Below are positions 19,784 to 46,435 of a DNA stretch of 49,095 bases, one piece after another (positions within the stretch are counted from its first letter, which is position 1; each line of letters begins with the position of its first letter). The DNA is from Theionarchaea archaeon. GTDB taxonomy: Archaea > Methanobacteriota_B > Thermococci > Methanofastidiosales > SZ-28-30. Position numbers and translations under genes: made by a program. The stretch covers positions 1 through 49,095 of the forward strand of contig JACVGW010000012.1 of NCBI GenBank assembly GCA_018992565.1, read 5' to 3'. The notes beneath the pieces were generated by a model. It saw only the letters and a list, made by a program, of their open reading frames with translations. It did no database searches and was not told the origin of the DNA.

Positions 19784-21898
19784 CTACTCCATCTCATGAG
19801 AGTACAAGACGAGAGAGTCAATATAGAAGGAAGATGCATACGGAAAAAGGGATATCCTAATGTCCTCACCAGGAGGCAACACAAAAAAGGCCACGAAGTG
19901 ATTGTCAGTGTTGAACCTAAAAATTGTCCCCGCGTATACATCATTGATTTCAATGTCCACATTTCCCTTTCCAGTATCTGCATAATGAATGCCCAGGAGG
20001 ACAGCCTCCCCTGCAGGAAGACTGAAATAAGATCGTACTCCGTGAGGTACTGATCCAGCACTCAGGTAAAGAAGGGGCGTATACAGAACTGGGTCTTCAT
20101 CTGTTACTGAAAGAATGTAAATGTCATTTTGATGAAATTCAAGGTTATACAAAGGAGAGTCTTCAACCATTTCAGGATCAATCCCGTCCTCCTCTTGAAT
20201 ATACACATGCGTAATCCCATACTTTTCCAGAATGCTCTTGCTGAACTCCGAAGAGGGTAGTGTCTTCAGAGTAGCCAGGTCGGTAAACCGTTCAGGAAGG
20301 TTCAATTCACTCATGGCATTGTCTCCCTTGTAGTAGAGATGATAAGGTAGTAGCACCCGCCTTCCAACTACTGCTGGAATCCAGGTAGAGGAATCTCCAG
20401 ATGATTGAAAATTCAGTATTGTGTCCTGCGGAGTGGTATTATTTGATAACCACCTGTATGCAGCGAGGGCGTCATCACTGATAGTGGGTTGCTGCTGCGG
20501 TAGTATGAAGAAGGGATCACTGACGTGAAGGATACAGGCTACCAGGACAAGCCCAGACAAGAACCACGTCATGTTCCTTTTTTCCAGTATCTGAGCCAGG
20601 AATAATCCTGCGAGCACAGACAATACTATGATTACCATTCTCATAATGAAAACAGGATCAAAGACCCACCATACTGGCACTAGTATACTGCTCAGGAGTG
20701 GAATACACAAACATACCGTATACAATCCTCCTACAGCCACAGGGAAAGAAACCACCTGTCTCACCCTGCGAACGGTGCATACCTGAAAGAGCGCAAATAT
20801 CAGTAACAAGGGCCCCATGGAAAAAAAGAATGTATTAAACTCCTTTAAACTATTCAAACTCTGGCTAAACCACTCTCCAGCAAACATGACCTCTAGGGGC
20901 TCGAGTGGGGGAAAGACGATTCTCGCCAGGGGGGGAAGACTGAACAGCAAGAAAGAGGCCAGAATATAGAAGGTAGACCGATAGACAATCATGAATCCCA
21001 CCAGAAAGACAGCAAGGGGAAGAAATGCATTCAAATCAACGCAAAAGCAGGCAGCGCAGGCTAATCCTGCCACTGCAAATTGAGAACGCGATTTCTGGGT
21101 AACGGCCTGAATGACCAGCGAAACAGCAAAGACCTGCAGAGTGATCCCTATGAGAAGAGGGTAGCTACCTGACAAGGCAACCTGGTGGAAGAGAAAAGAC
21201 AGTCCTGCAAAGGAGAATGCAGAAGTCAGCCCCACTTTCTCTGAATGTAAGGTCTTCCCCAGCATATAGACAGCAACACATCCCAGAGAGGCTGCAAGAA
21301 TGCCTACCATAGTACTGACTGGAACAAGGGGGCTGCGTGATGCCTGTGCCACCATGACAGCCATTCCATGGTATCCCAGAGGCTGGGTTACATGATGAAT
21401 CTCTGGATATAATGGAGCGTAACCGGAAGGAAGATTCATGGACTCCAGGATAGTACTGCAGTGCAGAAGGTGAAGCTTCATCTCATCCCCTGGTGGGAAA
21501 AATGCCACGTAATCTGTCCAGGGGTATACGTACGTCAACATGAAAAGGATACACCCCAGGAGATATACTGTTTTTCTGTCTATCAGAGGAAGAGGCGTAT
21601 CTCTCTTCAGTAGTATCATGGCAGAACCAAGGGATAACCCCAGGGGGATGGGGGCCCACACAATCCATGCACAGTAGTACACAACAACAGTGAGGAGTGC
21701 TGTACCACACAAAACACACACCAAAGGCGTTTTCTCTTCAAACCCCGCATACTCCCAGATCAAGAACCCGGGGAAGAAGGTCATCAGCAGCAATGCAGCA
21801 CCAATTCGGATGATACCTACAGGGATCAGTAGTGCACCTGCCAGTACAGCCCAGGCACTTAGGATAGAGACTCTGTTTCTGGTGAGATGTTCTCTCAT
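19784..21898 (-). CDS. Multi-pass GT-C-fold glycosyltransferase-like membrane protein
   Basis: Many TM helices, an acidic 'GDE' in the first loop, 'PLGYH', and a C-terminal extracellular domain 'AYRWLSNNT...WIPAVVGRR...KYGITHVYI'. Start reassigned to 21898. Confidence 0.6.
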   Translation of the reverse strand: MREHLTRNRVSILSAWAVLAGALLIPVGIIRIGAALLLMTFFPGFLIWEYAGFEEKTPLVCVLCGTALLTVVVYYCAWIVWAPIPLGLSLGSAMILLKRDTPLPLIDRKTVYLLGCILFMLTYVYPWTDYVAFFPPGDEMKLHLLHCSTILESMNLPSGYAPLYPEIHHVTQPLGYHGMAVMVAQASRSPLVPVSTMVGILAASLGCVAVYMLGKTLHSEKVGLTSAFSFAGLSFLFHQVALSGSYPLLIGITLQVFAVSLVIQAVTQKSRSQFAVAGLACAACFCVDLNAFLPLAVFLVGFMIVYRSTFYILASFLLFSLPPLARIVFPPLEPLEVMFAGEWFSQSLNSLKEFNTFFFSMGPLLLIFALFQVCTVRRVRQVVSFPVAVGGLYTVCLCIPLLSSILVPVWWVFDPVFIMRMVIIVLSVLAGLFLAQILEKRNMTWFLSGLVLVACILHVSDPFFILPQQQPTISDDALAAYRWLSNNTTPQDTILNFQSSGDSSTWIPAVVGRRVLLPYHLYYKGDNAMSELNLPERFTDLATLKTLPSSEFSKSILEKYGITHVYIQEEDGIDPEMVEDSPLYNLEFHQNDIYILSVTDEDPVLYTPLLYLSAGSVPHGVRSYFSLPAGEAVLLGIHYADTGKGNVDIEINDVYAGTIFRFNTDNHFVAFFVLPPGEDIRISLFPYASSFYIDSLVLYSHEME

Positions 21899-22032
21899 AT
21901 ACACACCACAATTCTGGTTGGAGTCTATAAGAATGTTGCCATCCTCTCCTGCTCTGTGCACCACATAATTTTCTTTCTTTAAGCTACTATCATAACCGTA
22001 AGTTTTATAAGGTATTGTGATATAGTACTGGC

Positions 22033-24333
22033 ATGAGAAGAGTGCTGGCTGCAGTACTGGTGCTGTTGCTTCTTTCGGGAAGCCTGGAAATGGAATCCAA
22101 GAAAATCGTGGTAGTCTCAAACTCGATTGACTATTCCTCAAGTCTTATCACGTATCTGGGCCAGTCATTTGAGGTTATATCCATTACCGCACAGCAGCTC
22201 CCCAGCTACCAGAATTACCAGCACTACGTCATTCTGGGTGGTCCAGATGCCCCTGAGGGGGTTGGCGAAGTGGTGCGCACATTGCTTGACCCTACTGAAC
22301 AGGAGTTTATCAGGACCCCAGGTGCATCTAATCTTTTCATAAGAGAGATCAGGGGAAAGACCTTTTTCATTTTCGCGGGAGCGACCCGGGAACTGACAAG
22401 GGAAGTCACAACTTCCAATAAGCGCCGGATTTTCGAATACATTCCCCGTGGCCCTGTATTGTGGCTGAAAGACCTGGATATCCAGCGCGTTACAGCCATG
22501 GATATTACAGATCTCGACCGGGACACCAGGTATGATTACGTTTTTGGCTGCCTGCGAGTCGTTTCAGACCCCTGGGACAGGGGCGCCATCTATGTTTACG
22601 AGAATAATGACCTCATGTGGTACTACCACGTGTCCAGAGAAATCAAGGCCTTAACCTGTTTTGATCTGGATCACAATGGGAAGGAGGAGATTATTGTCGC
22701 CTGCGATGTCCTCCTGGGTAATGAGGGTGATCTTTACGTTTTCGATCACAAAGGAATCCTCAAATGGAGGACTCATGTACCAGGATCTCCTCGAGGGCTG
22801 TACTGCTATGATCATTATGTAGCAGTAAACCTGTATGGGGGGGGAAACCGTGTCTTGATCTTTGATAATGAAGGGACCCGGGTAGCAGATTTGCCTGTGA
22901 ATGGGCGAATTTCCAAATTCATAATATCTGACATAAACAAGGATAGAAAGAAAGAGCTCGTGGTCAGTGGCATCGTGGATGAGAACTGGGAGCATTTCTT
23001 GACTGTGTATGACATGAGGGGGAATGTTCTGTGGAACTACACCACGTTCGAACATATCAATGATTTCCAATTTCATGACGTAGACAACGATGGCATGGAA
23101 GAAGCGCTCTTCATTTCCTATGACACGCTGTATGTGACCAGGGGAGGAGAGCTCCTGGGAAAAGTACATTTGCCCCCTGCCCTCCTGCATATGGAGGTTA
23201 TGGGTGATCAAATCTTGCTGGTTAACAGTGCCACCATGTTTGTTATAGAGGTACAGGCAGTAGCATCTCTGGAAGGAGAGAGTATTCCTCTTTCCGACTT
23301 CTCCCAAATGGTTACGTCATCTATTTCCCTCAGTTCTCAGCCGGAGTTTTTCATCGTGGAAGACATCGATCTGGACCATGTAGATGAAATTGTGGTTGGG
23401 AATGGTCAGGCGCTGGAAATCTACGTTCTGGAAGATTTCGGGCCTGGCATCAGTGGGTTCGTCACTGCGGCTGAGAGGATAATTCAGGGAGTGGCTGAAG
23501 AACGAGAAGAACTTCCTGATGCTGACTTTATAGTATATGAGGATTCGAAATTAGGGTTCAGAACAAAGTACTACAACCAATGGACAGAAGAACAGGTAGA
23601 GGGGGCAAATGCAGTTGTCTTTTACAGTCCTCTTGAGAGCGAACAGGATGTACTTCGAGAGAATGTGCTGGTATCAGTCTACAAGCTTCAGCCGGGAGAT
23701 CCTACAGATATTCATGAGTATGTTGAGCGAGAACTTGAAGAAATGAGAGAACAGAGTCCCGATTTGCGAGTCATTGAATCCACTGCAACTACTATGGGGG
23801 ACAGCCCTGCTCGCAGGGTTGTCTACATTGAAGGTGAAGAAATAGGCGGTGAACTGATTATAACTGTGCAGGTTGGCGCTATAAAGGAGAGCAACCTGTA
23901 TCTTATGACGTATATATCTGTGATCAGCACCTACAACCGATATTTACCCATTTTTGAGAAGATGGTATCTTCCTTTGAAATAATTGAACAGGTTCGACCA
24001 GTTGTTATTTGTCAGGTTCAATTTGATCCTGAGGGAGATGATAATGCAGACCTCAACAAGGAATGGGTGAAGGTCTGCAATAACAGTGATACTGATGTTG
24101 ATCTGTCGGGATGGACTCTGGAAAACGACGTTGGGGGGCTTTTTGAGTTTCCCCAGGGATTTGTAATCAAGGCAGGAAGCTTCGTTTTTGTATACACCGG
24201 TTCAGGTACCAACAGTGACGTTGCACTGTACTGGGGTTCTCCAGTGGAGAGGTGGAACAATTCAGGAGATACAGCTGTCTTGCGGGATGCAGAGGGGAAT
24301 GTGATGGACGAGTATGAATGGACTCCTCAGTAA
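22033..24333 (+). CDS. Secreted multidomain surface protein (S-layer-like N-domain, FG-GAP/propeller repeats, PsbP-like domain, C-terminal lamin-tail domain)
   Basis: Signal peptide; 'VILGGPDAPEG'; DLDxxGxxEI repeats; LTD signature 'EWVKVCN...VDLSGWTL...WNNSGDTAVLRD'. Confidence 0.75.
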   Translation: MRRVLAAVLVLLLLSGSLEMESKKIVVVSNSIDYSSSLITYLGQSFEVISITAQQLPSYQNYQHYVILGGPDAPEGVGEVVRTLLDPTEQEFIRTPGASNLFIREIRGKTFFIFAGATRELTREVTTSNKRRIFEYIPRGPVLWLKDLDIQRVTAMDITDLDRDTRYDYVFGCLRVVSDPWDRGAIYVYENNDLMWYYHVSREIKALTCFDLDHNGKEEIIVACDVLLGNEGDLYVFDHKGILKWRTHVPGSPRGLYCYDHYVAVNLYGGGNRVLIFDNEGTRVADLPVNGRISKFIISDINKDRKKELVVSGIVDENWEHFLTVYDMRGNVLWNYTTFEHINDFQFHDVDNDGMEEALFISYDTLYVTRGGELLGKVHLPPALLHMEVMGDQILLVNSATMFVIEVQAVASLEGESIPLSDFSQMVTSSISLSSQPEFFIVEDIDLDHVDEIVVGNGQALEIYVLEDFGPGISGFVTAAERIIQGVAEEREELPDADFIVYEDSKLGFRTKYYNQWTEEQVEGANAVVFYSPLESEQDVLRENVLVSVYKLQPGDPTDIHEYVERELEEMREQSPDLRVIESTATTMGDSPARRVVYIEGEEIGGELIITVQVGAIKESNLYLMTYISVISTYNRYLPIFEKMVSSFEIIEQVRPVVICQVQFDPEGDDNADLNKEWVKVCNNSDTDVDLSGWTLENDVGGLFEFPQGFVIKAGSFVFVYTGSGTNSDVALYWGSPVERWNNSGDTAVLRDAEGNVMDEYEWTPQ

Positions 24334-24550
24334 TGGAGAGCGCTGCTGGGCACTGAGAATGAGGAGCCTGTAGGGTCATACGAAACGTACTGCTGAAAGA
24401 ATTCAGAAATACTCGTTCTCATGGATATATCTTTCAAGATTATCAGTTGTTTTCCTGCACGGTATGGAGCAGTCGAGATCAGGCTGCATTAGGAGGTTCT
24501 TTGCCGAGACAACCCATATCTTTATATACAATACTAACCCCCTTTTTTTC

Positions 24551-25159
24551 ATGGAAGATCCCCGAGGGAAGTACATCAGGTGGAGTGAAGAGTGTGTCTG
24601 GCAGCCTTTCGGTTCATCACTGGTTATTCTCAACCCTTCTCACTCTCACACAGAACTTGTGGATCCGTATGTGAGCCTCAATGAAACGGCAAGAGACATA
24701 TGGAACTGGTGTGATGGTACCAGGACCTTTGAGACTATTGTTGCCCTCATACAGCAGGAATACGAGGGAGATCCCGATCACATCAGTGCCAATGTGCAGT
24801 CTGTTATTTCTCAGCTTCACCAACAGGGACTTCTCAGCTATGAAGATGTCCCGTGCGTCCCCTCAGAACTTACTGTTTCCCCTCACGATTTCATCATGTG
24901 GGCAGATACTGTCCTGTGGGAAGAAGTCGAAGGCAAAATCATTGTCCTGGACAATCATACAGGAACCTCTTACACTCTCCCTGAGGAAGCAACAGACCTG
25001 TGGAAGCTTCTCAATGGACAGGCTGCGCTTCTCATGGTTTTACGCACCCTGAAAGAGAAGGGGACTATTAATGAGGATATGCCCTCAGCCAGATTCAAGC
25101 TGCTTCTCAAGGAGTTTATCAAACTGGGATTACTGACAGTAAAAGACGAACCCTGGTGA
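24551..25159 (+). CDS. Tandem PqqD-like / RiPP recognition element (RRE) protein
   Basis: Two PqqD-like units: 'LNETARDIWNWCDGTRT...IV..I..EY' and 'LPEEATDLWKLLNG'. TATA TTTATATA at 24521. GTGA overlap with the next gene. Confidence 0.85.
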   Translation: MEDPRGKYIRWSEECVWQPFGSSLVILNPSHSHTELVDPYVSLNETARDIWNWCDGTRTFETIVALIQQEYEGDPDHISANVQSVISQLHQQGLLSYEDVPCVPSELTVSPHDFIMWADTVLWEEVEGKIIVLDNHTGTSYTLPEEATDLWKLLNGQAALLMVLRTLKEKGTINEDMPSARFKLLLKEFIKLGLLTVKDEPW

Positions 25160-26514
25160 AATACATGCAGTCCCTCAAGAGAAAAATCATCATCAAAGTG
25201 GATGAACAGAAATATCTTCTCGTGAACCCTTACACTGGGTTGGCAGATATAATTGATGAAGAGACCTGTCAGCTCCTCCAGCATGATTCTATATCCGTAG
25301 ACAGTGATACAATCCGTACCCTGCAGGCCAGGGGTCACATAGTACATGAGGGAGATGAGGAAGACCTCCTGGACTATCTTGAGCAACAGGCAAAGAAACT
25401 ACACCAGGAGGCCTTACAGTACCACAATCACTGTCTCATCCCCACCTATGGGTGCAATCTTCGCTGTCTTTACTGCTATGAGAAGCACATGTACAAGAAC
25501 GAGGTAAAACTGACACCAGTCATGAACAAGAAGACTGTTGATGCCTTTTTCAGCACCATTCTGTCTATGGATTCTGATGGTCCTCAACGGTTGATAACTC
25601 TGTATGGAGGGGAACCTCTTCAGCTCAAGAACAAGGAGATCATCCAGTACATTCTCTCCTTGGGGAACTCTCATGGATACACCTTTGAAGTGGTAACCAA
25701 TGGAGCTGATTTCCAGCACTTCGTCCCTCTTCTCAGCACTGTTTCTGTAAAATCTGTTCAGATTACTCTGGATGGGCCGGAACGTATTCATGATGCCCGC
25801 AGGTTTCGTCCTGGCAAAAAGGGAACCTTCCAGGATATAACCAGGGGAATAGACATGGCTGTTGACCATGATATCCCCGTAAAGATACGAATCAATGTGG
25901 ACTCTGACAACCTTGATCATATCCCTGAATTTGCTGACTTCTATCAGGAAAAGGGCTGGTACCCGGCTGCGAAGGCGTATGCCTGCAGTGTGCGTTCCTC
26001 AAGCTGTTCACCATATACCCGGGTCATCCCCCCAGAGGACTTTTCCAGGAAAATGATTGACCTTTTTGTGCATGACAGGAGAATGGAATTATTCCCTGGC
26101 ACATTTGGGAGTTTCAACTTCGTGTTCGGTCATCTCTTTCTAGGAACACCTCTCAAGAAACGATTCTGGGGATGCAGTGCGCATACTTCTCTGTTTTTCT
26201 ATGATCCCTTCGGCGATATATACGCCTGTGGGGAGGCTGTAGGGCATAAAGAACACCGAATTGGCACATTCCTTCCCGAACTCACTCTTAATGAGAACTA
26301 TCATAACTGGAGGGGCAGGACCATCCACACAGTACCTGAATGCGCAGACTGCAGCCTGAGTCTCTTCTGCGGTGGAGCGTGTGCATTCAAGGCATACCTC
26401 AAGAATGGCTCTATATACTCCCCGTACTGTGATCATGCCAAATCATCCGTGGAACATGAAGCGAAATATCTGTACCATCTAATGGAGACTCGAGGTACAA
26501 TGCTTTCACATTGA
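25156..26514 (+). CDS. Radical SAM/SPASM peptide maturase 1 (N-terminal RRE-like domain)
   Basis: CNLRCLYC, YGGEP, TNG and QITLDG; SPASM C..GDIYAC..CxxC..CGGAC..C. Confidence 0.92.
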   Translation: MKYMQSLKRKIIIKVDEQKYLLVNPYTGLADIIDEETCQLLQHDSISVDSDTIRTLQARGHIVHEGDEEDLLDYLEQQAKKLHQEALQYHNHCLIPTYGCNLRCLYCYEKHMYKNEVKLTPVMNKKTVDAFFSTILSMDSDGPQRLITLYGGEPLQLKNKEIIQYILSLGNSHGYTFEVVTNGADFQHFVPLLSTVSVKSVQITLDGPERIHDARRFRPGKKGTFQDITRGIDMAVDHDIPVKIRINVDSDNLDHIPEFADFYQEKGWYPAAKAYACSVRSSSCSPYTRVIPPEDFSRKMIDLFVHDRRMELFPGTFGSFNFVFGHLFLGTPLKKRFWGCSAHTSLFFYDPFGDIYACGEAVGHKEHRIGTFLPELTLNENYHNWRGRTIHTVPECADCSLSLFCGGACAFKAYLKNGSIYSPYCDHAKSSVEHEAKYLYHLMETRGTMLSH

Positions 26515-26589
26515 TAATTGGCCGCACTTTTTGCAGGGAAACTTCGAATAAAGACAACATTTTTAAATCCGCTCGCTGAATGTAATATA

Positions 26590-26631
26590 GAAAGATATTT
26601 AAACCTACAGAGAGAAAGAGTTCAGAGGTGA
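26590..26631 (+). promoter_or_regulatory. BRE/TATA promoter and RBS of the precursor peptide gene
   Basis: Purine-rich GAAAGA followed by TATTTAAA (26596-26603). RBS GAGGTGA at 26625-26631, 4 nt before the GTG. Confidence 0.7.
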
Positions 26632-26635
26632 TTCA

Positions 26636-26776
26636 GTGGAAGTCAAGCGACTCAACAAGAAGACCTGGGCTGACGGTGTTATAAAGCCCCTTGGCGCTCC
26701 TCCCACTCCTGCTGCCATTGATGGCTGCGGCGGCAGCTGTTGCAGCTGCTTCGATTATACCTGTGACCACTGGTAG
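26636..26776 (+). CDS. Putative RiPP precursor peptide, 46 aa: MEVKRLNKKTWADGVIKPLGAPPTPAAIDGCGGSCCSCFDYTCDHW
   Basis: Translated by hand; absent from the ORF track. GTG start after GAGGTGA, TAG stop at 26774-26776. Basic K-x-L-N leader, Pro/Ala linker, and a core with 5 Cys. Lies between rSAM/SPASM genes. Confidence 0.85.
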   Translation: MEVKRLNKKTWADGVIKPLGAPPTPAAIDGCGGSCCSCFDYTCDHW

Positions 26777-26849
26777 AACTCAATGGTTCTGGTGTAGAGA
26801 AGGAGTAGCTCCAGGTCAAATCTTGAAAAAGAGAGATCAAGTCTATCAG

Positions 26850-26899
26850 GGCGGTGGGGTGAACCCAGCATTCGCGGGTTCTCACTGCCTCCCTTTTTT
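26850..26899 (+). terminator. Stem-loop plus T tract between convergent precursor and rSAM2 genes
   Basis: GGCGGTGGG (26850-26858) pairs with CTCACTGCC (26881-26889), with inner AACCC/GGGTT, followed by TTTTTT (26894-26899). Confidence 0.6.
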
Positions 26900-26906
26900 G
26901 TGAATG

Positions 26907-27989
26907 TCATCCATTCTGGGTGGGAGTATATGGGCACTGGGGATCTGGCTGGAATGGATCATCATAGACTGCATACGCAATACAGGTGGCACCTCCACTG
27001 CAAATGTTGGGCGCTCTCTTGCAGAAGTAACAATCTCGACATTTTCCTTTGACAATGAGATGTTTCTGGCGGAGGTTCCATAGGACTGGATGACTCCAGA
27101 TCGTAACAAAGTCCTCTTTGAGGAGGTTTCCCAGGAAGACAGGCATCCTCCGACAGGGATAGACATCACCGTTCTCCATGACGCAGATGTGGGATAGCCC
27201 AGCACTGCACCGGTGGCCATTCTTGGTGAGAGCATCAGGATGGGAAGGGTCGAAGATAACTGGCCAGTCGCACCTGTCCCTGGCAATGTGCAGGCCAGAT
27301 GGTTTTTTCGTCGAGAGTTCGTCGAAATCATGGCTTAATTTTGTATATAAGGTCAAGATTTGTTCTGGAGAAAGCATCAATTCTTTGAGTGCCTTCCCCC
27401 TTCCCCAGGGGACAATCCGCGTGACAGTGAGAACATCTGCCCCCATAGCCACTGCAAGGTCTGTTATGTTGAAGGCATCTTCATAGTTGTCTTTGTGGAC
27501 TACATAGTGCATGTGAGTGACGATCTTGGACTTGCTGAGATGGTTCAGTGCTCTCAGTGCCTGGAGAAATGTGCCTCTTCCCCGTACTGCGTCGTGGATT
27601 TCTGAAGTCGCACCATCAAAGCTGATTTGAACATCTATGCGCATGGAGTATTTCTCAAGGCGGTGCACCATCTCTTCAGTCATGGTAGTCCCGTTGGTCA
27701 GTATGGCTGCATAGCAGGGAGACGAGGGGCTCTCCTCAATGTAGTCAAGTATATCCCAAAACTGAGGATGCAGTGTGGGTTCTCCTCCTGTCAGCCAGAT
27801 GACAGGCATCCTCTCAAACCTGGAGCAGTAGTCCAGAAATGCACGTATCACTTTCTTACAGTCCTGAAACCCCATATGATAGTGGGTTTCTGCATCATCA
27901 TAACAGTGGATACACCGCAAATTGCACTGGCCAGTGATTCCCACCTGCATGATGAAGGGATGTTTTCTGGACTCAGGATCATCTCTCAC
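26907..27989 (-). CDS. Radical SAM/SPASM protein 2 (PqqE-like architecture, no fused RRE)
   Basis: CNLRCIHC, LTGGEP, CSAG, GDVYPC and CRDCYFC..CSGGATC..DPQC. GTG 27989 overlaps the upstream stop (GTGA) and follows RBS AAGGTGA. Confidence 0.9.
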   Translation of the reverse strand: MRDDPESRKHPFIMQVGITGQCNLRCIHCYDDAETHYHMGFQDCKKVIRAFLDYCSRFERMPVIWLTGGEPTLHPQFWDILDYIEESPSSPCYAAILTNGTTMTEEMVHRLEKYSMRIDVQISFDGATSEIHDAVRGRGTFLQALRALNHLSKSKIVTHMHYVVHKDNYEDAFNITDLAVAMGADVLTVTRIVPWGRGKALKELMLSPEQILTLYTKLSHDFDELSTKKPSGLHIARDRCDWPVIFDPSHPDALTKNGHRCSAGLSHICVMENGDVYPCRRMPVFLGNLLKEDFVTIWSHPVLWNLRQKHLIVKGKCRDCYFCKRAPNICSGGATCIAYAVYDDPFQPDPQCPYTPTQNG

Positions 27990-29326
27990 GGTATCACCTT
28001 CTTTGCTTCCATGATCCTCCACAGGAGCGGGTAATATATGGTGCGGGCCTGCTTTGAAAACGTGCAATCAGGCCTCAGGAGCGTGCCTTTCTCATGATAC
28101 ACATAGTGGGCACATCCTCCTCCGCAGATCATGGCATACTTGCACGAGTGGCAAGGGTTCATGGTGAAGATCGTTCTCTCCTTCCACTGGTGGTAGTGTC
28201 GATTCAACACAAGTTCAGGGTAGTATCTCCCCACAGCATGCTCCCTGTCACCCAGAGTATCAGTGCACATGTAGATATCTCCATGGGGGTCCAGCCATAC
28301 TTGAGAAGGATTCTGTCTGCAGTAGGTAGTACAGGGAATCCAGGTGTCAACTCCCAGTCCAAGTTTCTTCCGTATAGGTTCCAGCCCAACCCAGAAAGCG
28401 TCCCGGACTGACTCCTCCTCAACCAGAAAATCCAGGTCTTCCTCATGAAGGTTACACACGAAATTAAAACATCCCCCCTCTGTATGATGGCGCTGCGGAG
28501 TTAGGAACACGGATACGTAGGCGCTGTTCTTCCATCCTTTCTCTTCTGCAAAGTCCATGAATGAGGGTAAGTCCCTTACCGTGGAATGGTCAAAGACTAC
28601 ACGCACATATACGCGTATCTTCTCATCTGCCAGTGCATCAACTGATGCCACAATTTCCTGAAAGGATCCCGTTCCATCCAGTTTCTTTTTTCTGGAATCG
28701 TGAACAGGTGGTAGCCCATCCAGGGTGACCTGCACTGAGGTAATGTCATGCTGCGACAGAAGAGGAATGAATCTTTTTGCTTCCAGCCCATTGGTGACTA
28801 TAATGAATGATTTTTCCTGAGATGATCCTTTTTCCAGTACATATTTGACCAGATCATAATTCCGGTAGAGGAGAGGCTCCCCCCCAAACAGATGAATGGG
28901 AGTATCAGCTTCAGGGTTCATGGTTTCCATGATTTCAAATGCTTTGTCTACATGGTCAAAACTCATGGTGTTCTCAAGCCAGTTCTTCTCTCTCTCAAAA
29001 ACATAAGACTCAAAGCAGTAGTCACACCGCATGTTGCAGGCATAGGTGAGGATCAGCACAAAGAACAAGTTGTCTTGGACAGGGTTGAAGGATGTGAGGC
29101 AATCGTATGCATGGATGATTTCCTCTCTGGGGGACATGGTAGTCAGAAACCCTGACTCCTGCAGTATTTTCACAGCCTCGGCGTCACATGCTTCTGGATT
29201 CTCACTGTCCAGAATCTCTTTCAGATGGTTCTTCCCCTGCAGAATGTGACCGGTGAATGTATTGACGAACAGGTAGTCTTCATCAGAGACCGGGATGACC
29301 ACAGCGTATCGGCTACGGGTCAACAT
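27986..29326 (-). CDS. Radical SAM/SPASM peptide maturase 3 (N-terminal RRE-like domain)
   Basis: CNMRCDYC, FGGEP and QVTLDG; SPASM GDIYMC..CHSC..CGGGC..C. Confidence 0.92.
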   Translation of the reverse strand: MLTRSRYAVVIPVSDEDYLFVNTFTGHILQGKNHLKEILDSENPEACDAEAVKILQESGFLTTMSPREEIIHAYDCLTSFNPVQDNLFFVLILTYACNMRCDYCFESYVFEREKNWLENTMSFDHVDKAFEIMETMNPEADTPIHLFGGEPLLYRNYDLVKYVLEKGSSQEKSFIIVTNGLEAKRFIPLLSQHDITSVQVTLDGLPPVHDSRKKKLDGTGSFQEIVASVDALADEKIRVYVRVVFDHSTVRDLPSFMDFAEEKGWKNSAYVSVFLTPQRHHTEGGCFNFVCNLHEEDLDFLVEEESVRDAFWVGLEPIRKKLGLGVDTWIPCTTYCRQNPSQVWLDPHGDIYMCTDTLGDREHAVGRYYPELVLNRHYHQWKERTIFTMNPCHSCKYAMICGGGCAHYVYHEKGTLLRPDCTFSKQARTIYYPLLWRIMEAKKVIP

Positions 29327-30641
29327 GGCTCTTTTTCACCGCCCTGTAGAGGTGGGGAACCACACTTGAAAACACTTCTTCGTAGTTGTAGCACACTGGC
29401 CTACACAGGGTCCCAAACCGCGTCAAGGCTTCATACCCACATCCTCCCCCGCAGAATAAAGCGTATTTACATGTTCTGCACTCGGGGATGGTGAAAATAG
29501 TCCGATTCCTCCACTCGCTGTACATGTCATTCCACACCAGATCCGGGTAGTACCTCCCTACTCTAGCCTGTTCTTCCCCCACATGTTCAGTGCATACGTA
29601 TATGTCTCCAAAAGGATCAAAAACAAACGTGCCGCTCTGTGCATCGCAGTACCAGAAGCGGGGAGGTCCCAGTTCTCCTTTTTCAAATACCTGTTCAAAC
29701 AATTCTGCCCCTTTCAAGTCGAACGATACGTGCATAATATCAGGAGATTTCTGTGTTTGGGCTATGACTGTATCATACACTGTACTCCTGGGGACAATGG
29801 GGGTGTACTGGATTCCCGGTTTCTTGAAGACAGGTGACACATGCATTGATACCTTTGGATGGTGGAGCCAGCCCTTCTCATGGTAGAGCTGCACTACTTC
29901 AGGCAGGACAGACAGGTTGTCTGCATCAATGTTTGTGCGCAGCAGACAGGTCAGCCCTGCTTCCAGAGCAGCATCAATTCCTTCTATGATTTCTGAAAAA
30001 GTCCCAGATCCATTTTTTTTGAACCGTCTCTTGTCATGAATTTGCTGGGGCCCATCTATGGTGGTCTGTACGGCTACCTCATAGGGCTGGAAGTCCTCTA
30101 CAAAATCGCGGAGCAAGACACCATTTGTTAGAACCAAAAAGGAATACCCGAGATCATCTCCTGTCTCCAGTATCTTCTTCACAGCATCTCTGTTCTTCCT
30201 AAGGAGAGGCTCTCCTCCGTACAAGATGATTCGGTAGCGAGATTCATCCAGCCGGGCGATTATACTGAAAATAGTGTCTATGTGGGGACCATCGATAACT
30301 GTGGATTCTCTCTTTGACTGTATATCAGAAAGGTAACAATACGGGCACTGTAAATTGCACTCGTACGTGAGAACAATGAAATGCTGATGCAATACAGGGT
30401 GCCCCTGCACATATGTGTCGTACATGGTCTTTATGCACTCTGACTCCTGATAAGGTGTCAGTTCTGTAAGATGCCCTCTCTCGGTGAGAGTATCAAGAAT
30501 TGTTTCATCCGGAGGAATTTCATTCCTGAGTACTCTCAGGACTTCTTCATCTACCAGATCTAGTGCACCTGTTCTTGAATTGATAAGAAGGTACGTGTTT
30601 TCGTCGAGCTGCAGCGGAATGCTGTACACACTCACGTTCAC
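29313..30641 (-). CDS. Radical SAM/SPASM peptide maturase 4 (N-terminal RRE-like domain)
   Basis: CNLQCPYC and YGGEP; SPASM CDA..GDIYVC..CRTC..CGGGC..C. RBS GGAGGTGG. Confidence 0.92.
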   Translation of the reverse strand: MNVSVYSIPLQLDENTYLLINSRTGALDLVDEEVLRVLRNEIPPDETILDTLTERGHLTELTPYQESECIKTMYDTYVQGHPVLHQHFIVLTYECNLQCPYCYLSDIQSKRESTVIDGPHIDTIFSIIARLDESRYRIILYGGEPLLRKNRDAVKKILETGDDLGYSFLVLTNGVLLRDFVEDFQPYEVAVQTTIDGPQQIHDKRRFKKNGSGTFSEIIEGIDAALEAGLTCLLRTNIDADNLSVLPEVVQLYHEKGWLHHPKVSMHVSPVFKKPGIQYTPIVPRSTVYDTVIAQTQKSPDIMHVSFDLKGAELFEQVFEKGELGPPRFWYCDAQSGTFVFDPFGDIYVCTEHVGEEQARVGRYYPDLVWNDMYSEWRNRTIFTIPECRTCKYALFCGGGCGYEALTRFGTLCRPVCYNYEEVFSSVVPHLYRAVKKSHVDP

Positions 30642-30779
30642 CAGACCACCTCCTTGCCAGTCAATGCATCCTGGAATGGGTTATCATATAAATGTTTGCT
30701 CATCGTGGCTGGCTCTCTGAGCCAAGGAAGCATCGGCATAGAGACTGAAAACCTTTTTAACAGTACTGATTGACAGAAA

Positions 30780-31574
30780 ATGATGGATCATGATGATTTT
30801 GTCAGGTATGTAGAGGATTCACATACGGTATTTGTACTATATTCCATCAAGGAACGATTGGTAGGTATAGATGAGACCACAGACGTTGCTATCAAGAAGA
30901 TAGGGTATCCTGGAAGGATGGAGAATATTCTGAGGAAGCTCTTTTTTGGAGAAGGGATTCCTGGAATTGTGACAAGGAAGACCCGTCCGTATTTTCACAG
31001 TCTGATTTCCATTCCTTTGCGGAAGATCGACATATGTGCCTTTGCTCATGCTTCTCTTGAGACTCAGCTGGAGGAGAAATGGAAGGTTGAAATGGAGCAA
31101 GCACACGGGAGGAAAAGGATGTTGTTTGAATTTGCTGCATCACTGAGAGACATTTTTATGAAGCAGGAGATTCTGGCATCAGCTATCAGGGGTTCAACTG
31201 TCATTGAGGGAAGGTATCCCTCCCCTGTGGATGCTGTAAATTTCGTCATTTTCACCGAATTCGATTTGAAAGAATATTTTGAAAGGGAAATCACTCAACA
31301 TAAAGAGATCAGCTTTTTTAAATGGATTGACTGGGGATTTAGGGATGTTGTCGCAGGGAACAGAACAAGGAAAACACTCATAGAGCAGAAGACTGTTTTG
31401 TTCGAAAGGAATGGGATGTACAGGATTGATGTGCGATCTTTCAACCCTGAACAGTGGTTCTGGCTCAAGAAGGCTCCCAGAGTGACCCGGCTGGTATACC
31501 TCAAGAGCCTGGAAGGGATCTACCCTTTCAAAGGAGAAGAGCTCTTGCAGGAGTTCTGCAGTCTCATCACATAA
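30780..31574 (+). CDS. Hypothetical protein, possible degenerate nucleotidyltransferase-like fold
   Basis: 264-aa ORF upstream of rSAM5. 'AIRGST...PVDAVNFVIF' weakly resembles the Pol-beta GS...DxD motif. Confidence 0.6.
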   Translation: MMDHDDFVRYVEDSHTVFVLYSIKERLVGIDETTDVAIKKIGYPGRMENILRKLFFGEGIPGIVTRKTRPYFHSLISIPLRKIDICAFAHASLETQLEEKWKVEMEQAHGRKRMLFEFAASLRDIFMKQEILASAIRGSTVIEGRYPSPVDAVNFVIFTEFDLKEYFEREITQHKEISFFKWIDWGFRDVVAGNRTRKTLIEQKTVLFERNGMYRIDVRSFNPEQWFWLKKAPRVTRLVYLKSLEGIYPFKGEELLQEFCSLIT

Positions 31575-31619
31575 GTGGAAAGGATTTTAACTCTGAAAAC
31601 AGAGAGGAATGATAGTCCC

Positions 31620-33008
31620 ATGTATGCCAGTACGTACAACAGCGTGATACCCATGGACTCGGGTGAAGCAGTGTTATTCAATTCGCTGAGCGGAGCTCTT
31701 TTTGTGCTGGATAGAAGAATTGCATCTGCTATAGGGAGGGGGGATTGTGGATCAGTGGACAATTCAATTCTTCAGTATCTTAAGAAGGACAATATCCTGT
31801 ATGATAGTATTGACGATGAGAAGGCTCACGTCAGCTTCACTGCAGAGATGGTGAAGAAGTCTCAGGAAAGTGAACGAATACGGTATCATGTGGTTCCCAC
31901 TCTCGGGTGCAATATTTCGTGTTCTTACTGCGATAGAGGAGGGGACAGAGACAGTATGTCTGCCAGCCAGGCTGCAAAGGTAATTGAGGCTATAGAGTAT
32001 GTTGAAGAGTTGACTTCTGGTAGCCATGCACCCCTTCTGATTCTGGATGGTGGTGAGCCGCTGTCTCTCCAGGAAGAGGTGAGAGAGAGTTGTTCCACTT
32101 TGCTGGATCTGGCCGACGAAAGGGATTTTCACGTAGCTTTCAGGACAAATGGAGTCACCTTGTCCGAATATGCTGCAGACCTGACACAGTACTATGTTGA
32201 GTACGTGGATGTTCCTGTAGATGGCACGAAATCATATCACGATAGGAGACGAAGATCCCAGAAAGGGGGAACCTTTGACGATATTGTGACAGGCATTGAG
32301 ACAGCTCTGGATTGTGGGTTACAGGTGAACCTGCGTCTGCAGGTATCATCTCACAACCTCATGGAAGCACCTGCAATGGCGGAGTTCATCATGGACAAGA
32401 CATGGCACCTGGCCAGGAATTTTCGTGCACTTCTTTGCCCACTTGAGGACTTCTCCTGTTATGGGTTTCGTACATGTAGGCCAGACTATAGTATCCTGAA
32501 GGATGTTCTTGAGTTGTACCAGGCGCATGCAGCAATGGAGCTTTTCACGCTAACTGGATTCTTTGAGATTTCAAGCCTGTTGTACCTTCTGGAGAGTGGA
32601 GTGAGTCTTCGCCCTCGGTTGTCCCCCTGTGATGCAGGAAAAGCACTGTACTGTTTTGACCCTTACAACACCATCTACCCCTGCGTGGCAGCCTGCATGA
32701 TGCGGACGTCACCTGTGGGCATGTACCAGCCCGAAATGACAGTATTTCCTGCCCTGGATCAGTGGCGAACCCGTAGCGTCTTCACTGTGGATTCCTGTCT
32801 ATCGTGCCCCTTCTGCTTTGTATGTGGTGGAGGGTGTACTCTGCAGGCGACGACCCATGGTGCTGTGACCAAACCTCAATGCCGTCCTGTAGACACGGCC
32901 TTACAGCTAGCATGTGCAGAATACTTGAGTGAGAATAGAGCAAGAGAGAGTTCTTTCATCTATTTTGATAACATTTTTATCCCAAAAAAAGAAATAACCT
33001 TCCCATGA
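31620..33008 (+). CDS. Radical SAM/SPASM peptide maturase 5 (N-terminal RRE-like domain)
   Basis: CNISCSYC and DGGEP; SPASM CDAG..IYPC..CLSC..CGGGC..C. The N-terminus aligns with those of rSAM3/4 from ATG 31620 (alternative GTG 31575). Confidence 0.9.
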   Translation: MYASTYNSVIPMDSGEAVLFNSLSGALFVLDRRIASAIGRGDCGSVDNSILQYLKKDNILYDSIDDEKAHVSFTAEMVKKSQESERIRYHVVPTLGCNISCSYCDRGGDRDSMSASQAAKVIEAIEYVEELTSGSHAPLLILDGGEPLSLQEEVRESCSTLLDLADERDFHVAFRTNGVTLSEYAADLTQYYVEYVDVPVDGTKSYHDRRRRSQKGGTFDDIVTGIETALDCGLQVNLRLQVSSHNLMEAPAMAEFIMDKTWHLARNFRALLCPLEDFSCYGFRTCRPDYSILKDVLELYQAHAAMELFTLTGFFEISSLLYLLESGVSLRPRLSPCDAGKALYCFDPYNTIYPCVAACMMRTSPVGMYQPEMTVFPALDQWRTRSVFTVDSCLSCPFCFVCGGGCTLQATTHGAVTKPQCRPVDTALQLACAEYLSENRARESSFIYFDNIFIPKKEITFP

Positions 33009-33031
33009 TACGTTATGGAAGAAAAACAGTC

Positions 33032-33481
33032 CTATCCATATGTTTCAATTTCGGGATGAGATCTGGCTTTTTCTACTATAGGGCCTTCCACGATGAATCC
33101 GAGAGCAATGCCGCTGCCACGCACTGAAAGAAGGCAGTCATTTGGTTTAATGGAATATCTCTCGAGGGTCACCACGGGAACTGTGAACTCTCTGTCCCGT
33201 ATAGTAATAGAGCAGCAGGGCTTTCCATCAATCTCAATGAGGGTTCCTTCAGGCACAGACGTGCTCAGAACCGCATCTACCATGCGTCTCATGGGTGAAT
33301 CCCTGGCCAATGACTGGGTGGTCACTGCAAATCCTTTTGATGATCTGCTTCCTGGCATGAGAACACCTGGACCTTCCAGCCTGTATTCTTGTGCTGCCTC
33401 CTCAGGGATGATGATTCTTCCTTCTCTTCCCACCCTTGACCATCCAAATATGTACTTACCACCCTTTGCAATTCGGGGCAT
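33032..33481 (-). CDS. Tandem AbrB/MazE-like swapped-hairpin domain protein
   Basis: 'SRVGREGRIIIPEEAAQEYRL' and a second unit 'FTVPVVTLERYSIKPND'. Confidence 0.6.
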   Translation of the reverse strand: MPRIAKGGKYIFGWSRVGREGRIIIPEEAAQEYRLEGPGVLMPGSRSSKGFAVTTQSLARDSPMRRMVDAVLSTSVPEGTLIEIDGKPCCSITIRDREFTVPVVTLERYSIKPNDCLLSVRGSGIALGFIVEGPIVEKARSHPEIETYG

Positions 33482-33739
33482 GATGTAGATTGAACCTCTA
33501 CCTTATATAATGAGTGCGTGACAGCAGGAGATGGCTACGTATGGGCCTTCTAGGATTCGTTGTCTCATTCTTTAAGTCTACACGGAACAGTCTGTACGCG
33601 AAGAGTTCAGGGATCAGAAAAAGCACAAACAAGGGTTGCAGATTTATATACTGCGCTATTGGGAGATGATGTCATGAGAAGGAATAAAACGAAATGCTTA
33701 TATATAAGTTAACCTATAGAAAAGTTCAGGACAGAAGAG

Positions 33740-34240
33740 GTGATAATCATAGACAAGAAACAGAAGTTGGGAATTGTAGTGATTCTTGCAGTCCTGGTGT
33801 TTTCTACGGTCACTTTCACTGCAGCTGATTTCTCAACGTTCTTCACGCCGCTATATACTGTGAGAATGGAGCAGGCAAGCAGCAAAATGAACTTCTTATC
33901 CACTCCAGTAAACGAGTTCACGTATTCTACTGAAGGAGGGCAAACATTTGGTTACCATATTACTGGCAGAACATGTGCTTGCTGGGGCGATCAGACCCCT
34001 CAACTGCCGCTGACATGCAACACCTGTGATGATTACTATTGCGAAGAACCTACGCATTGTGGCACCTGTGTTACCTGCTACAGCACATGCCAGGACACAT
34101 GCCCGAATACGTGCTCCACATGCTCCACGTGCAGTGGTTCTACATGTGAGCCTGCTACATGTCCATGGACGCAATGGCCCTACTGTGCAGAAACCCTGAG
34201 CTGGCCGACGTGCTACTGGGCAACCTGCTACTGGTGCTAA
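33740..34240 (+). CDS. Signal-peptide-bearing Cys/Thr-rich repeat protein (possible second rSAM substrate)
   Basis: Basic then hydrophobic N-terminus, 19 Cys in the C-terminal ~90 aa (mostly TC dipeptides), TATA at ~33699-33707, and a T-tract terminator after the stop. Confidence 0.75.
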   Translation: MIIIDKKQKLGIVVILAVLVFSTVTFTAADFSTFFTPLYTVRMEQASSKMNFLSTPVNEFTYSTEGGQTFGYHITGRTCACWGDQTPQLPLTCNTCDDYYCEEPTHCGTCVTCYSTCQDTCPNTCSTCSTCSGSTCEPATCPWTQWPYCAETLSWPTCYWATCYWC

Positions 34241-45114: not shown

Positions 45115-45274
45115 GTAATCACCAGAAGATTATCCTGCCGTAGAGTAATATAAACTTTTCCTCTTCCTTCCATACTGATAATGAGAGGTGTACGGTACAC
45201 TGTGGGCTGCTGAATGCTGTACTTCCTACCTCCACAGGAGAAATCCTTTTATGAGGAAAGGAGAAGGTCTCTGC

Positions 45275-46435
45275 ATGGTAGGTACGGAACCCATGTCGCG
45301 CAGGGATTTCATCAAGAAGTCTGTAGTGGCAGGAGCCGGCCTTGCTCTGGGCGTGTACGGCGTGTCCCGGCTGCTGCAGCACGAGTCCCCTTCTGCGTCC
45401 GGTGACAGTGGACAGCCCTGGAAGTGGTCAAAAGAAGGGTACCACTATATTACTCTGGGAGACTACGTCCAGTGTCAGATCTGCCCCAATCAGTGTGTAC
45501 TGAGAGAAGGAGTCAGGAGTGTATGCCGCAACAAAACCAACTACAAGGGCACCTTATACACACTAGCCTATGGAAACCCGTGCGCAGTTCACGTGGATCC
45601 TGTGGAGAAAAAGCCTCTCTTTCACTTCCTTCCCTCTTCTTCGGTTTATTCTGTAGCCACTGCAGGGTGCAACTTCAGGTGCTTGAACTGCCAGAACTGG
45701 GAAATCTCTCAGAAAAGCCCGGAAGAGACCACAAATATGGAATTGTTCCCTGAGAATGTGGTGATGAAAGCAGAGCAAGCAGGGTGTCAGTGTGTCGGAT
45801 ATACATACAGTGAGCCTACAGCCTGGTATGAGTACATGTACGATACAGCTCGAATTGCCTCACAGAGAAGAATCAAGAATATCTGGGTGACCAATGGCTA
45901 TATGAATGAGCAGCCTTTGAGAGATTTATGTCAGTATCTTGATGCAGCCAATGTGGATGTGAAGAGCTTTGATGAGAGGATCTATCATGAGCTCAATTCT
46001 GGAATGCTACAACCTGTGCTTAACACTTTAAAGATATTGAAAGAGGAAGGGGTGTGGATTGAAATGACTAATCTGGTGATACCAACGTGGACAGACGATC
46101 TGGACATGATCCGTGAAATGTGCCAGTGGCTGTACGAGAATCTGGGTCCTGACTATCCACTGCACTTCTCCCGATTTCATCCTGATTATAAACTGCAGCA
46201 TTTGCCCCCCACTCCCATTGAAATCTTGAAAGAAGCGCACACCATAGCTGAAGAAGAAGGGCTGCACTACGTTTACATTGGGAATGTGCCAGGTGTTGAG
46301 GAGCAGAGCACGGTGTGTCCTTCATGCCAGAGAGTGGTGGTGGAAAGGAATGGGTTCTTCATTGTGCAAATGCATATTCAGAATGGAGCATGTGAATTTT
46401 GTGGAGAGACGGTGGCAGGTGTGTGGTCAGGATGA
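45275..46435 (+). CDS. amrS: AmmeMemoRadiSam system radical SAM enzyme with twin-arginine-like N-terminus
   Basis: SRRDFIK, CQICPNQC, DPVEKKPLFHF, CNFRCLNCQNW, YTYSEP and YVYIGNV. Confidence 0.92.
   Translation: MVGTEPMSRRDFIKKSVVAGAGLALGVYGVSRLLQHESPSASGDSGQPWKWSKEGYHYITLGDYVQCQICPNQCVLREGVRSVCRNKTNYKGTLYTLAYGNPCAVHVDPVEKKPLFHFLPSSSVYSVATAGCNFRCLNCQNWEISQKSPEETTNMELFPENVVMKAEQAGCQCVGYTYSEPTAWYEYMYDTARIASQRRIKNIWVTNGYMNEQPLRDLCQYLDAANVDVKSFDERIYHELNSGMLQPVLNTLKILKEEGVWIEMTNLVIPTWTDDLDMIREMCQWLYENLGPDYPLHFSRFHPDYKLQHLPPTPIEILKEAHTIAEEEGLHYVYIGNVPGVEEQSTVCPSCQRVVVERNGFFIVQMHIQNGACEFCGETVAGVWSG

Follow-up and report, generated by a model that had tools for sequence, protein, structure and literature searches.

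The part of a 2021 review used here (PMC8326336) gives the definition of the ranthipeptides, describes the contact of the CteB RRE with its leader and attributes beta/gamma thioethers to the SCIFF peptides. In Methanococcus voltae, a Cys-rich protein of 28.8 kDa receives ranthionine links from an enzyme of family TIGR04463, according to the portion available of a 2026 paper (PMC13692751). An Angew. Chem. paper of 2025, again as far as its accessible part goes, states that ranthi- and sactipeptide clusters are abundant in archaea and that identified archaeal RiPP products are scarce (PMC12144867). Archaeal radical-SAM peptides have been predicted by genome mining and are hardly characterised, and the only archaeal SPASM thioether enzyme found in print, in the accessible text of the Methanococcus paper (PMC13692751), acts on a large protein.

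The locus analysed here lies in a stretch of 49,095 nucleotides (hereafter the window), contig JACVGW010000012.1 of assembly GCA_018992565.1 (Theionarchaea archaeon). The host is an archaeon, since on contig C127 the best-scoring rRNA models, SSU and LSU, are the archaeal ones. Related proteins carry the source labels Theionarchaea or Methanofastidiosia. Ordinary archaeal genes (STT3/AglB, EF-1alpha, HisRS and CTP synthase) flank an island that spans about 24.4-33.0 kb of the window and contains a 46-codon ORF, a PqqD-type protein and several radical SAM enzymes (Table 1). The upstream FG-GAP/LTD protein (22033-24333) was left outside the system as far as seen; the clusters on contigs C97 and C62 of the same genome differ at that place. 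A preliminary description had proposed that the ORF is a precursor of leader-linker-core layout within a radical SAM/RRE cluster, with a ranthipeptide-like core. The family alignment and the neighbouring genes support the precursor. We consider it probable that the ORF is a translated RiPP precursor whose leader is held by the PqqD-type protein and whose Cys-rich core is cross-linked by CteB-like SPASM enzymes, most likely through thioethers.

Table 1. Features of the precursor locus (positions in the window).
Feature	Coordinates	Strand	Description
PqqD-family leader-binding protein (RRE)	24551..25159	+	202 aa from internal ATG of ORF 24464-25159; PF05402, 73.8 bits
Radical SAM/SPASM maturase 1	25156..26514	+	452 aa; PF04055; CX3CX2C at residue 100; 7-Cys SPASM at 340-425
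A/T-rich box AAAGATATTTAAA, candidate archaeal TATA/BRE region	26591..26603	+	Recurs 5' of the C97 paralog
Shine-Dalgarno GAGGTGA	26625..26631	+	4 bases 5' of the peptide start codon
Precursor peptide gene	26636..26776	+	46 aa, GTG start, TAG stop; translation VEVKRLNKKTWADGVIKPLGAPPTPAAIDGCGGSCCSCFDYTCDHW
Leader and linker, residues 1-30	26636..26725	+	Family-invariant N7, K8, K9, W11 (15-sequence alignment); residues 8-28, predicted PqqD contact (complex prediction)
Core, residues 31-46, CGGSCCSCFDYTCDHW	26726..26773	+	C31, G32, C36 family-invariant; remainder type-specific (15-sequence alignment)
Hairpin (26849-26893) followed by T6 (26894-26899), possible transcript end	26849..26899	+	Between the convergent peptide and SPASM genes
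Short radical SAM/SPASM enzyme	26907..28067	-	386 aa, no N-terminal extension; PF04055 and PF13186; start codon uncertain
Radical SAM/SPASM maturase 2	27986..29326	-	446 aa; complete SPASM motif
Radical SAM/SPASM maturase 3	29313..30641	-	442 aa; complete SPASM motif
Protein of no family	30780..31574	+	264 aa; operon-like position 5' of maturase 4; divergent from maturase 3
Radical SAM/SPASM-like maturase 4	31575..33008	+	477 aa; CX2CX5CX3C core present, GX4C element absent

Translation reproduces the 46-residue ORF, which begins at a GTG that is the first start codon 3' of the preceding in-frame stop in the ORF listing. The composition claimed for its C-terminus was also found as described. 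The last 16 residues hold five Cys and two Asp together with F, Y, H and W, and one C-x3-D motif is present (C36 to D40). Since ORFs of such size are common by chance, with 159 ORFs of at least 30 aa overlapping positions 20000-34000 of the window, a 46-codon ORF alone proves nothing and its status as a gene rests on its relatives. The exact 46-aa protein is present in public collections (NCBI nr, five contigs), so that its hidden state concerns no more than the ORF track behind the preliminary description.

Relatives were found in the same genome. Contig C97 encodes a paralog with 57% identity to the window peptide (E 2.5e-10), and three more, two on contig C13 and one on C29, came to light when 62,614 small ORFs were scanned for the motif, so that the genome carries five family genes in total. 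The five peptides share the leader pattern x-x-x-[RS]-[LV]-N-K-K-x-W-x-[DE] and a core that opens with C-G-[GS]; the core start common to the family is C-G-[G/S]-x-x-C. A family profile recovered the five loci plus one (E 6.6e-16) in G001, a genome from another species of the genus, with no other match among 36 relatives, and it matched in two of the 133 genomes covered for the phylum. Public metagenome protein collections supplied nine more variants. The family alignment therefore holds 15 sequences of five types (the genome genes, the G001 ortholog and the nine public variants), in which M1, N7, K8, K9, W11, C31, G32 and C36 are invariant. In the six variants of the C97 type, substitutions are confined to residues 10-23, leaving MEVVRLNKK and the last 18 residues unchanged. 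The start position is equivalent across the family, being GTG in the window gene and ATG in the others. The ribosome-binding site GAGGTGA, which had been noted for the window gene, was confirmed there and lies 4-6 nt 5' of the start codon in all six family genes read as DNA; all six also have a radical SAM/SPASM gene less than 200 nt away. The features by which a RiPP precursor is recognised, a conserved leader, a variable core and adjoining modifying enzymes, were thus found over the 15 sequences and the six genes.

Searches further afield returned little. No ortholog of the window type was found in public protein collections, in which the window peptide forms a cluster of one sequence, and when 5.8 billion proteins were searched by word index, the window peptide matched only itself. 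A profile search with a two-sequence alignment against 1.84 billion representatives gave six matches at E<=0.001, namely the window peptide, one C97-type ortholog and four long repeat proteins that were judged spurious. With the single peptide as query against 60 relatives, the best E was no lower than 0.019. Pattern scans of genome contigs and metagenome contigs gave 66 and 53 matches, respectively, one of which passed in each case. The former, which passed tblastn, was a 19-residue stretch in Actinomadura and the latter lay inside an unrelated 213-aa ORF; both were taken as chance. The family profile had no match below E 2 among PDB chains, none of the NCBIfam models matched any of six family peptides, and a family precursor was searched for and not found in the C62 cluster and its G001 counterpart. 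A literature search, made over main texts and with queries other than the motif string, found no description of the peptide family. By these searches the family appears small, undescribed and restricted so far to one archaeal genus.

The mode of evolution was examined by the Nei-Gojobori method. The dN/dS was 0.18 between the C29 type and its G001 ortholog, 0.14 between the two C13 types and 0.36 between the window and C97 types, with synonymous sites near saturation in all three pairs (pS 0.54-0.67, and 0.58 for the window pair). Differences were in excess at third positions for the C29 type and its ortholog (p 0.001) and for the C13 pair (p 0.0002), and the codon-position test on the window/C97 pair alone was not significant (p 0.31). 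The G001 gene is syntenic with the C29 locus: both peptide genes lie between the same metallophosphoesterase and AAA genes and a pair of maturases. Identity between these two orthologous ORFs is 117/159 (74%), compared with 81/151 (54%) upstream and 70/157 (45%) downstream. The frame of the G001 ortholog is intact. The presence of paralogs and orthologs, the common Shine-Dalgarno sequence, the radical SAM neighbours and the dN/dS below 1 establish the 46-codon ORF as a gene. It is a real gene in a leader-conserved, core-variable family that always lies beside SPASM enzymes.

The other expression signals were less clear-cut. The peptide gene had been credited with its own BRE/TATA, and what exists is an A/T-rich box with a counterpart, AAAGATATATATA, at equal spacing 5' of the C97 paralog, where the flanks diverge; it stands as a candidate. 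Likewise, the hairpin and T-tract described downstream do exist, but the hairpin begins 73 nt past the stop codon, a consensus terminator scan called no sites, this hairpin included, and 26770-26910 folds only slightly better than shuffled sequences do (z -1.69; 9 of 200 shuffles equally good).

The maturase 1 gene overlaps at its start the end of the PqqD gene, and a gap of 121 nt separates it from the peptide gene. In the PqqD protein, the PF05402 match covers residues 54-124 of the 231-aa ORF and exceeds the gathering cut-off of 23.4 bits, which places the protein in the PqqD family; against the curated models for PqqD, ScmD and lasso B1 it stays under the cut-off each time. Public records carry the 202-aa form. 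Its C-terminal half (residues about 117-202) is conserved in four of five aligned paralogs, and in the fifth (L035:1150-1761) it is weak, with 23% identity.

Docking of the leader on the RRE domain had been suggested as a check and was addressed by complex prediction, using the 202-aa protein (5-row alignment) and the peptide (6-row alignment). The complex score was 0.57, 0.82 and 0.83 in three runs, with a median of 0.82 as compared with 0.01 for the best of three controls, a result that may reflect likeness to the solved RRE-leader complexes that exist rather than the binding of this pair itself. The mark for this score was calibrated: 58 of 80 solved complexes attained it, as did 2 of 110 mismatched pairs. 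Contact agreement between the runs was at least 50% and the partner pLDDT at least 52. The predicted contacts involve peptide residues 8-28, with residues 11-17 running along PqqD residues 42-47 and against the helix 69-92, and the invariant W11 is predicted to touch PqqD residues 46, 71 and 78. A leader strand placed beside beta3 and against alpha3, as predicted here, is the usual binding mode of RRE domains. The model thus predicts that the peptide leader docks in the PqqD groove.

Occurrence and expression were followed in public sequencing runs. The 3.7-kb stretch around the gene is present near word-for-word (0.89-0.97 of sampled words) in 18 DNA runs from 7 studies, labelled marine sediment, mangrove, soil or plain metagenomes, two of which may be the source. 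One run (X14) gave only a 35-nt piece of 90-95% likeness, which is uninformative, and in another (X15) 6 bases out of 3610 differed, all outside the ORF, a number too small for a selection test. Metatranscriptome evidence for the peptide, also proposed as a check, was not obtained: two metatranscriptome runs yielded one perfect contig each, over the PqqD gene (24592-24866) and over maturase 1 (25803-26019), and no RNA contig in them covers the peptide ORF. As the RNA evidence consists of contigs for which DNA carry-over is possible, it is a weak hint that the operon is transcribed and says nothing on the peptide gene.

These data bear on whether the ORF could be something other than a maturase substrate, either a chance or decaying ORF or a small Cys-rich, for example metal-binding, peptide that stays unmodified within the cluster. 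The GTG start, the window type without ortholog, the missing RNA contig and the non-significant codon-position test against C97 would fit such an ORF. We nevertheless hold this to be highly improbable, since the window peptide keeps all family-invariant residues, the Shine-Dalgarno sequence and the start position, its dN/dS against C97 is 0.36 (with the synonymous sites near saturation), and docking on the PqqD protein is predicted. Gene order is also the same in paralogous clusters. At C97 the order PqqD, maturase 1 homolog, (B12 radical SAM), peptide, convergent SPASM enzyme mirrors that of the window, with 44% identity for PqqD and 54% for maturase 1, next to the 57% of the peptide.

A translated precursor raises the matter of its enzymes. 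Five radical SAM enzymes are encoded in the island, three of which (the 386-aa enzyme and maturases 2 and 3) lie on the opposite strand, convergent with the peptide gene. CX3CX2C is found in all five, the full 7-Cys SPASM in maturases 1-3 and a Pfam SPASM match in the 386-aa enzyme. CefB (NF038107) is the best curated model for all four long maturases, and the match is near end-to-end for maturases 1-3; for maturase 1 it amounts to 160.7 bits (residues 8-439 against model positions 5-431), below the cut-off of 600. To our knowledge, CefB has not been characterised experimentally. TIGR04463 is second-best for maturases 1 and 2, with 127 and 129.4 bits against a cut-off of 525. SkfB, AlbA and RumMC models gave weak matches. 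The nearest solved structure to maturase 1 is CteB (5wgg, E 4.6e-21, residues 51-433 against 66-443), followed by anSME. The predicted N-terminus of maturase 1 has strands at 11-16, 19-24 and 29-34 and helices at 35-42, 50-58 and 67-88, the order of elements of a putative fused RRE (a winged helix of three strands and three helices), but at a pLDDT of 33-63 (model mean 54.6), too poor to confirm such a domain. The 386-aa enzyme has its best NCBIfam matches among AhbD, TIGR04053, ACGX and mycofactocin maturase types, all below cut-off, and its PDB matches are PqqE (6c8v) and SkfB. The 264-aa protein matches no Pfam or NCBIfam model and bears no relation to the PqqD protein; a nucleotidyltransferase lead is weak (Atlas score 0.85, TM below 0.5). 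Family-model searches recognised no protease or exporter in or beside the island.

Because the nearest relatives are thioether-forming (CteB, PapB and the TIGR04463/CrpC family) and invariant Cys occur in the core, Cys thioether rings are the most likely product. The maturases score far below curated cut-offs, and the chemistry of characterised enzymes can therefore not be transferred to them. We infer the thioether chemistry, its regiochemistry and the choice among the five enzymes acting on the peptide. The sequence does not discriminate between beta/gamma (ranthi) and alpha (sacti) thioethers.

The preliminary description likened the peptide to the SCIFF and PapA precursors. In its specific form this would mean PapB-like Cys-to-Asp beta-carbon links in the CX3D motif (C36-D40) and further beta/gamma thioethers. 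The core does contain two Asp and the single CX3D, no solved structure is nearer than CteB, and PapB model NF047865 matches three long maturases at 110-120 bits; the freyrasin with six Cys-Asp bridges and the SCIFF peptides with beta/gamma thioethers, as given in the consulted part of the review (PMC8326336), offer precedents. The scores themselves argue the other way. PapB reaches 119.7, 114.0, 109.9 and 70.7 bits on maturases 1-4 compared with a cut-off of 340, and the SCIFF-maturase model TIGR03974 reaches 86.8, 91.4, 90.3 and 61.6 bits on the same enzymes compared with 425. The SCIFF precursor model TIGR03973 (cut-off 50 bits) matched none of the six peptides at E<=10, and a six-frame search of the genome at the same threshold hit no family locus, giving only an unrelated place of 16.1 bits on contig C21. 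Repeated CX3D motifs of the PapA type are not found; the window peptide has one, and CX3D occurs in one of the five peptide types (the window type) and in none of the other four. What the family has in common in the core is C-G-[G/S]-x-x-C rather than a motif with an acidic acceptor. Moreover, the classical ranthionine acceptors Asp, Asn, Thr, Ser, Glu and Gln are all missing from the C97 core CGCGGGCCYGRW, while the C97 cluster keeps the closest paralogs of PqqD and maturase 1. Given the lack of a SCIFF match, the scores below cut-off and CX3D in one type of five, the narrower ranthipeptide claim fails, and we regard links of the SCIFF/PapA type in this peptide as unlikely. Of the likeness as first proposed, a RiPP precursor with CteB as the nearest solved enzyme stands and the SCIFF/PapA membership does not.

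The aromatic residues were considered as well. The chemistry could be mainly of another kind, with C-C, C-N or ether cross-links on F39, Y41, H45 and W46, C-terminal decarboxylation, epimerisation or Cys oxidation, the Cys serving for instance in metal binding or disulfides. The cores of all types in the 15-sequence alignment are aromatic-rich and end in W, F or C. Among the five radical SAM enzymes two or more architectures are represented, of which one comes closest to the PqqE, mycofactocin-maturase and AhbD types; models of cyclophane and dynobactin maturases match the long maturases at a similarly low level to the models above; and anSME, the second PDB match of maturase 1, oxidises Cys or Ser. 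A predominance of such reactions is nonetheless quite improbable, as Cys and Gly are the only invariant residues of the core and the enzyme adjoining the peptide best matches the maturases of Cys-containing peptides (CefB, TIGR04463, PapB and CteB). In addition to thioether rings, the other enzymes may carry out reactions of a non-thioether kind on the aromatic tail.

Thioether formation on the Cys-rich core can then be laid out as a sequence of steps. The peptide would be translated from the strong Shine-Dalgarno site and is probably transcribed from its own promoter. Its leader (about residues 7-28, anchored by N-K-K-x-W) would lie as a beta-strand in the beta3/alpha3 groove of the PqqD-type protein, which is discrete and whose gene stands two genes upstream; N-terminal domains in the long radical SAM enzymes perhaps hold the leader too. 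Held in this way, the leader would present the core CGGSCCSCFDYTCDHW to the CteB-like radical SAM/SPASM enzymes. Most likely, these enzymes abstract hydrogen at an acceptor residue, which they then bond to a Cys sulfur; several intramolecular thioether rings would result. Additional enzymes may add more links or other changes.

The C97 cluster suggests where the first enzyme may act. Its core lacks a classical ranthionine acceptor and yet the closest PqqD/maturase 1 pair is kept, so the target of this pair should be C-G-G-x-C-C, and with such a target alpha-carbon or not-yet-described links are as open as beta/gamma ones. A wider view can be built on this, in which the genus runs a diversifying combinatorial repertoire made of one leader code (N-K-K-x-W with two-part PqqD proteins), hypervariable Cys/Gly/aromatic cores and an expanded set of SPASM enzymes, and in which PqqD and maturase 1 act on C-G-G-x-C-C to form a novel first cross-link. 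We offer it as a doubtful extension. If it were true, the first cross-link would be unlike that of SCIFF or PapA, for example sulfur to the glycine alpha-carbon or a Cys-derived link. The number of enzymes in the genus is large. A block on contig C13 has eight radical SAM/SPASM genes, two PqqD genes, a methyltransferase, a nitroreductase and two family peptides. At E<=1e-20, maturase 1 has 29 matches in the 2.8-Mb genome, 15 in G001 and 8 in G002. Matches were present in five of the 41 genomes searched, being weaker in G007 (2) and G019 (1), which belong to the same order as the host and to a different family, and at that threshold the other 36 had none. Uncultured sediment archaea thus invest heavily in radical-SAM peptides.

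Several things come together at this locus: a short substrate that can be expressed, a leader whose code is defined, a leader-binding protein encoded separately and enzymes in a graded series. The four sister peptide types are natural substrate variants. With these components, the cross-link chemistry and the recognition of the leader become testable by co-expression.

Several known systems resemble parts of this locus. The PqqD/RRE domains of PqqD-PqqA and lasso B1 share PF05402 and the predicted leader strand with the window protein, which adds a C-terminal half. The 'Cys-every-fifth' maturase CefB is the best model for the long maturases, yet their scores are far below 600 and no precursor model matches the peptides. 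In CteA/CteB (SCIFF, Clostridia; 5wgg/5why), the enzyme resembles maturase 1 in its N-terminal extension, radical SAM core and 7-Cys SPASM, and CteA, like the window peptide, is a precursor of roughly 45 residues with C-terminal cysteines. Unlike CteA/CteB, the window has a separate two-part PqqD protein, five radical SAM enzymes and an archaeal host. PapA/PapB shares with the window the broad SPASM maturase clade (119.7 bits) and one CX3D, whereas the six Cys-Asp bridges of freyrasin (PapA), as reported in the review part consulted (PMC8326336), compare with one possible bridge in the window peptide and none in the other types. CrpA/CrpC of Methanococcus voltae is alike in being archaeal, in having RRE, radical SAM and SPASM parts and in the arrangement of an N-terminal recognition part and C-terminal cysteines; by the available portion of its description (PMC13692751), CrpA has a mass of 28.8 kDa and contains ten repeats of 17 residues as well as C-x-x-Q/D motifs, in contrast with the repeat-free 46-aa peptide of the window. 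Also unlike CrpA/CrpC, the window has a separate PqqD protein and several enzymes, and the maturase scores are below the cut-off of 525. Judged by sequence comparison, the precursor family is new and genus-restricted, its maturases lie outside all curated families, and it stands apart from SCIFF and PapA.

Matches to maturase 1, the radical SAM/SPASM enzyme encoded just upstream of the 46-aa precursor, were counted at E<=1e-20. The genome under study (2.8 Mb) contains 29 such matches distributed over 15 contigs, the second species of the genus has 15 and a further genome has 8, while two genomes of the same order that belong to another family hold 2 and 1, respectively. At least one such match was found in 5 of the 41 genomes searched. 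Judged by these sequence matches, the putative SPASM peptide maturases are very strongly expanded within one archaeal genus.

Besides its radical SAM/SPASM and PqqD genes, a block on contig C13 (L035) encodes one methyltransferase, one nitroreductase and two HTH proteins. In addition to its two family precursors, the block contains a third small Cys-rich ORF, the leader of which is unlike that of the family. Elsewhere in the genome, the two small ORFs on contig C4 share their Shine-Dalgarno context and have almost identical N-termini, MYI[KR]SEIEEISMEIDQCMCCA...; they sit immediately upstream of a radical SAM paralog (C4:5935-7179). This pair probably represents another precursor family. A radical SAM paralog (C140:14295-15569) also neighbours the small ORF on C140, at a distance of ~370 nt.

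Features in the window and on other contigs of the same genome
Feature	Location	Strand	Remarks
264-aa protein, no family	window 30780-31574	+	immediately precedes maturase 4
Thr-Cys repeat protein, 166 aa	window 33740-34240	+	~730 nt downstream of maturase 4
Radical SAM gene, then Memo/AMMECR1 fusion	window 45188-47907	+
Similar Thr-Cys repeat ORF	C125:7224-7511
Similar Thr-Cys repeat ORF	C147:63730-63999
Two small ORFs	C4:7390-7467 and 7764-7862	-	~300 nt between, same strand
Cys-rich small ORF	C140:15941-16096	+	Shine-Dalgarno site
Cys-rich small ORF	C15:1442-1585	+	Shine-Dalgarno site
L035, ~20 kb	C13:32500-52400		8 radical SAM/SPASM genes, 2 PqqD genes, 2 family precursors
Third small Cys-rich ORF in L035	C13:38944-39093	-	leader unlike family's

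The 40-aa paralog on contig C97 falls in a 90%-identity protein cluster that also lists a 174-aa protein and others 1418-1439 aa long. Comparison of the 174-aa member (P0014) with the peptide revealed no likeness, and the mixed cluster therefore suggests, as far as this member goes, an oddity of the collection's clustering rather than biology.

Within the window, perfect matches to metatranscriptome contigs from two studies cover 24592-24866 in the PqqD gene and 25803-26019 in maturase 1, a weak hint of transcription for the operon that precedes the peptide gene. The 166-aa protein has a hydrophobic segment at its N-terminus, Thr-Cys-x-x units crowd its C-terminal half, and searches of Pfam and NCBIfam assigned it to no family. 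Since it adjoins radical SAM genes, it could be a second substrate. Pol-beta-type nucleotidyltransferases, which it resembles only weakly (TM below 0.5, Atlas score 0.85), are the sole lead for the 264-aa protein. The radical SAM gene and the Memo/AMMECR1 fusion near the end of the window are not related to the peptide island; together they correspond to the AmmeMemoRadiSam gene set.
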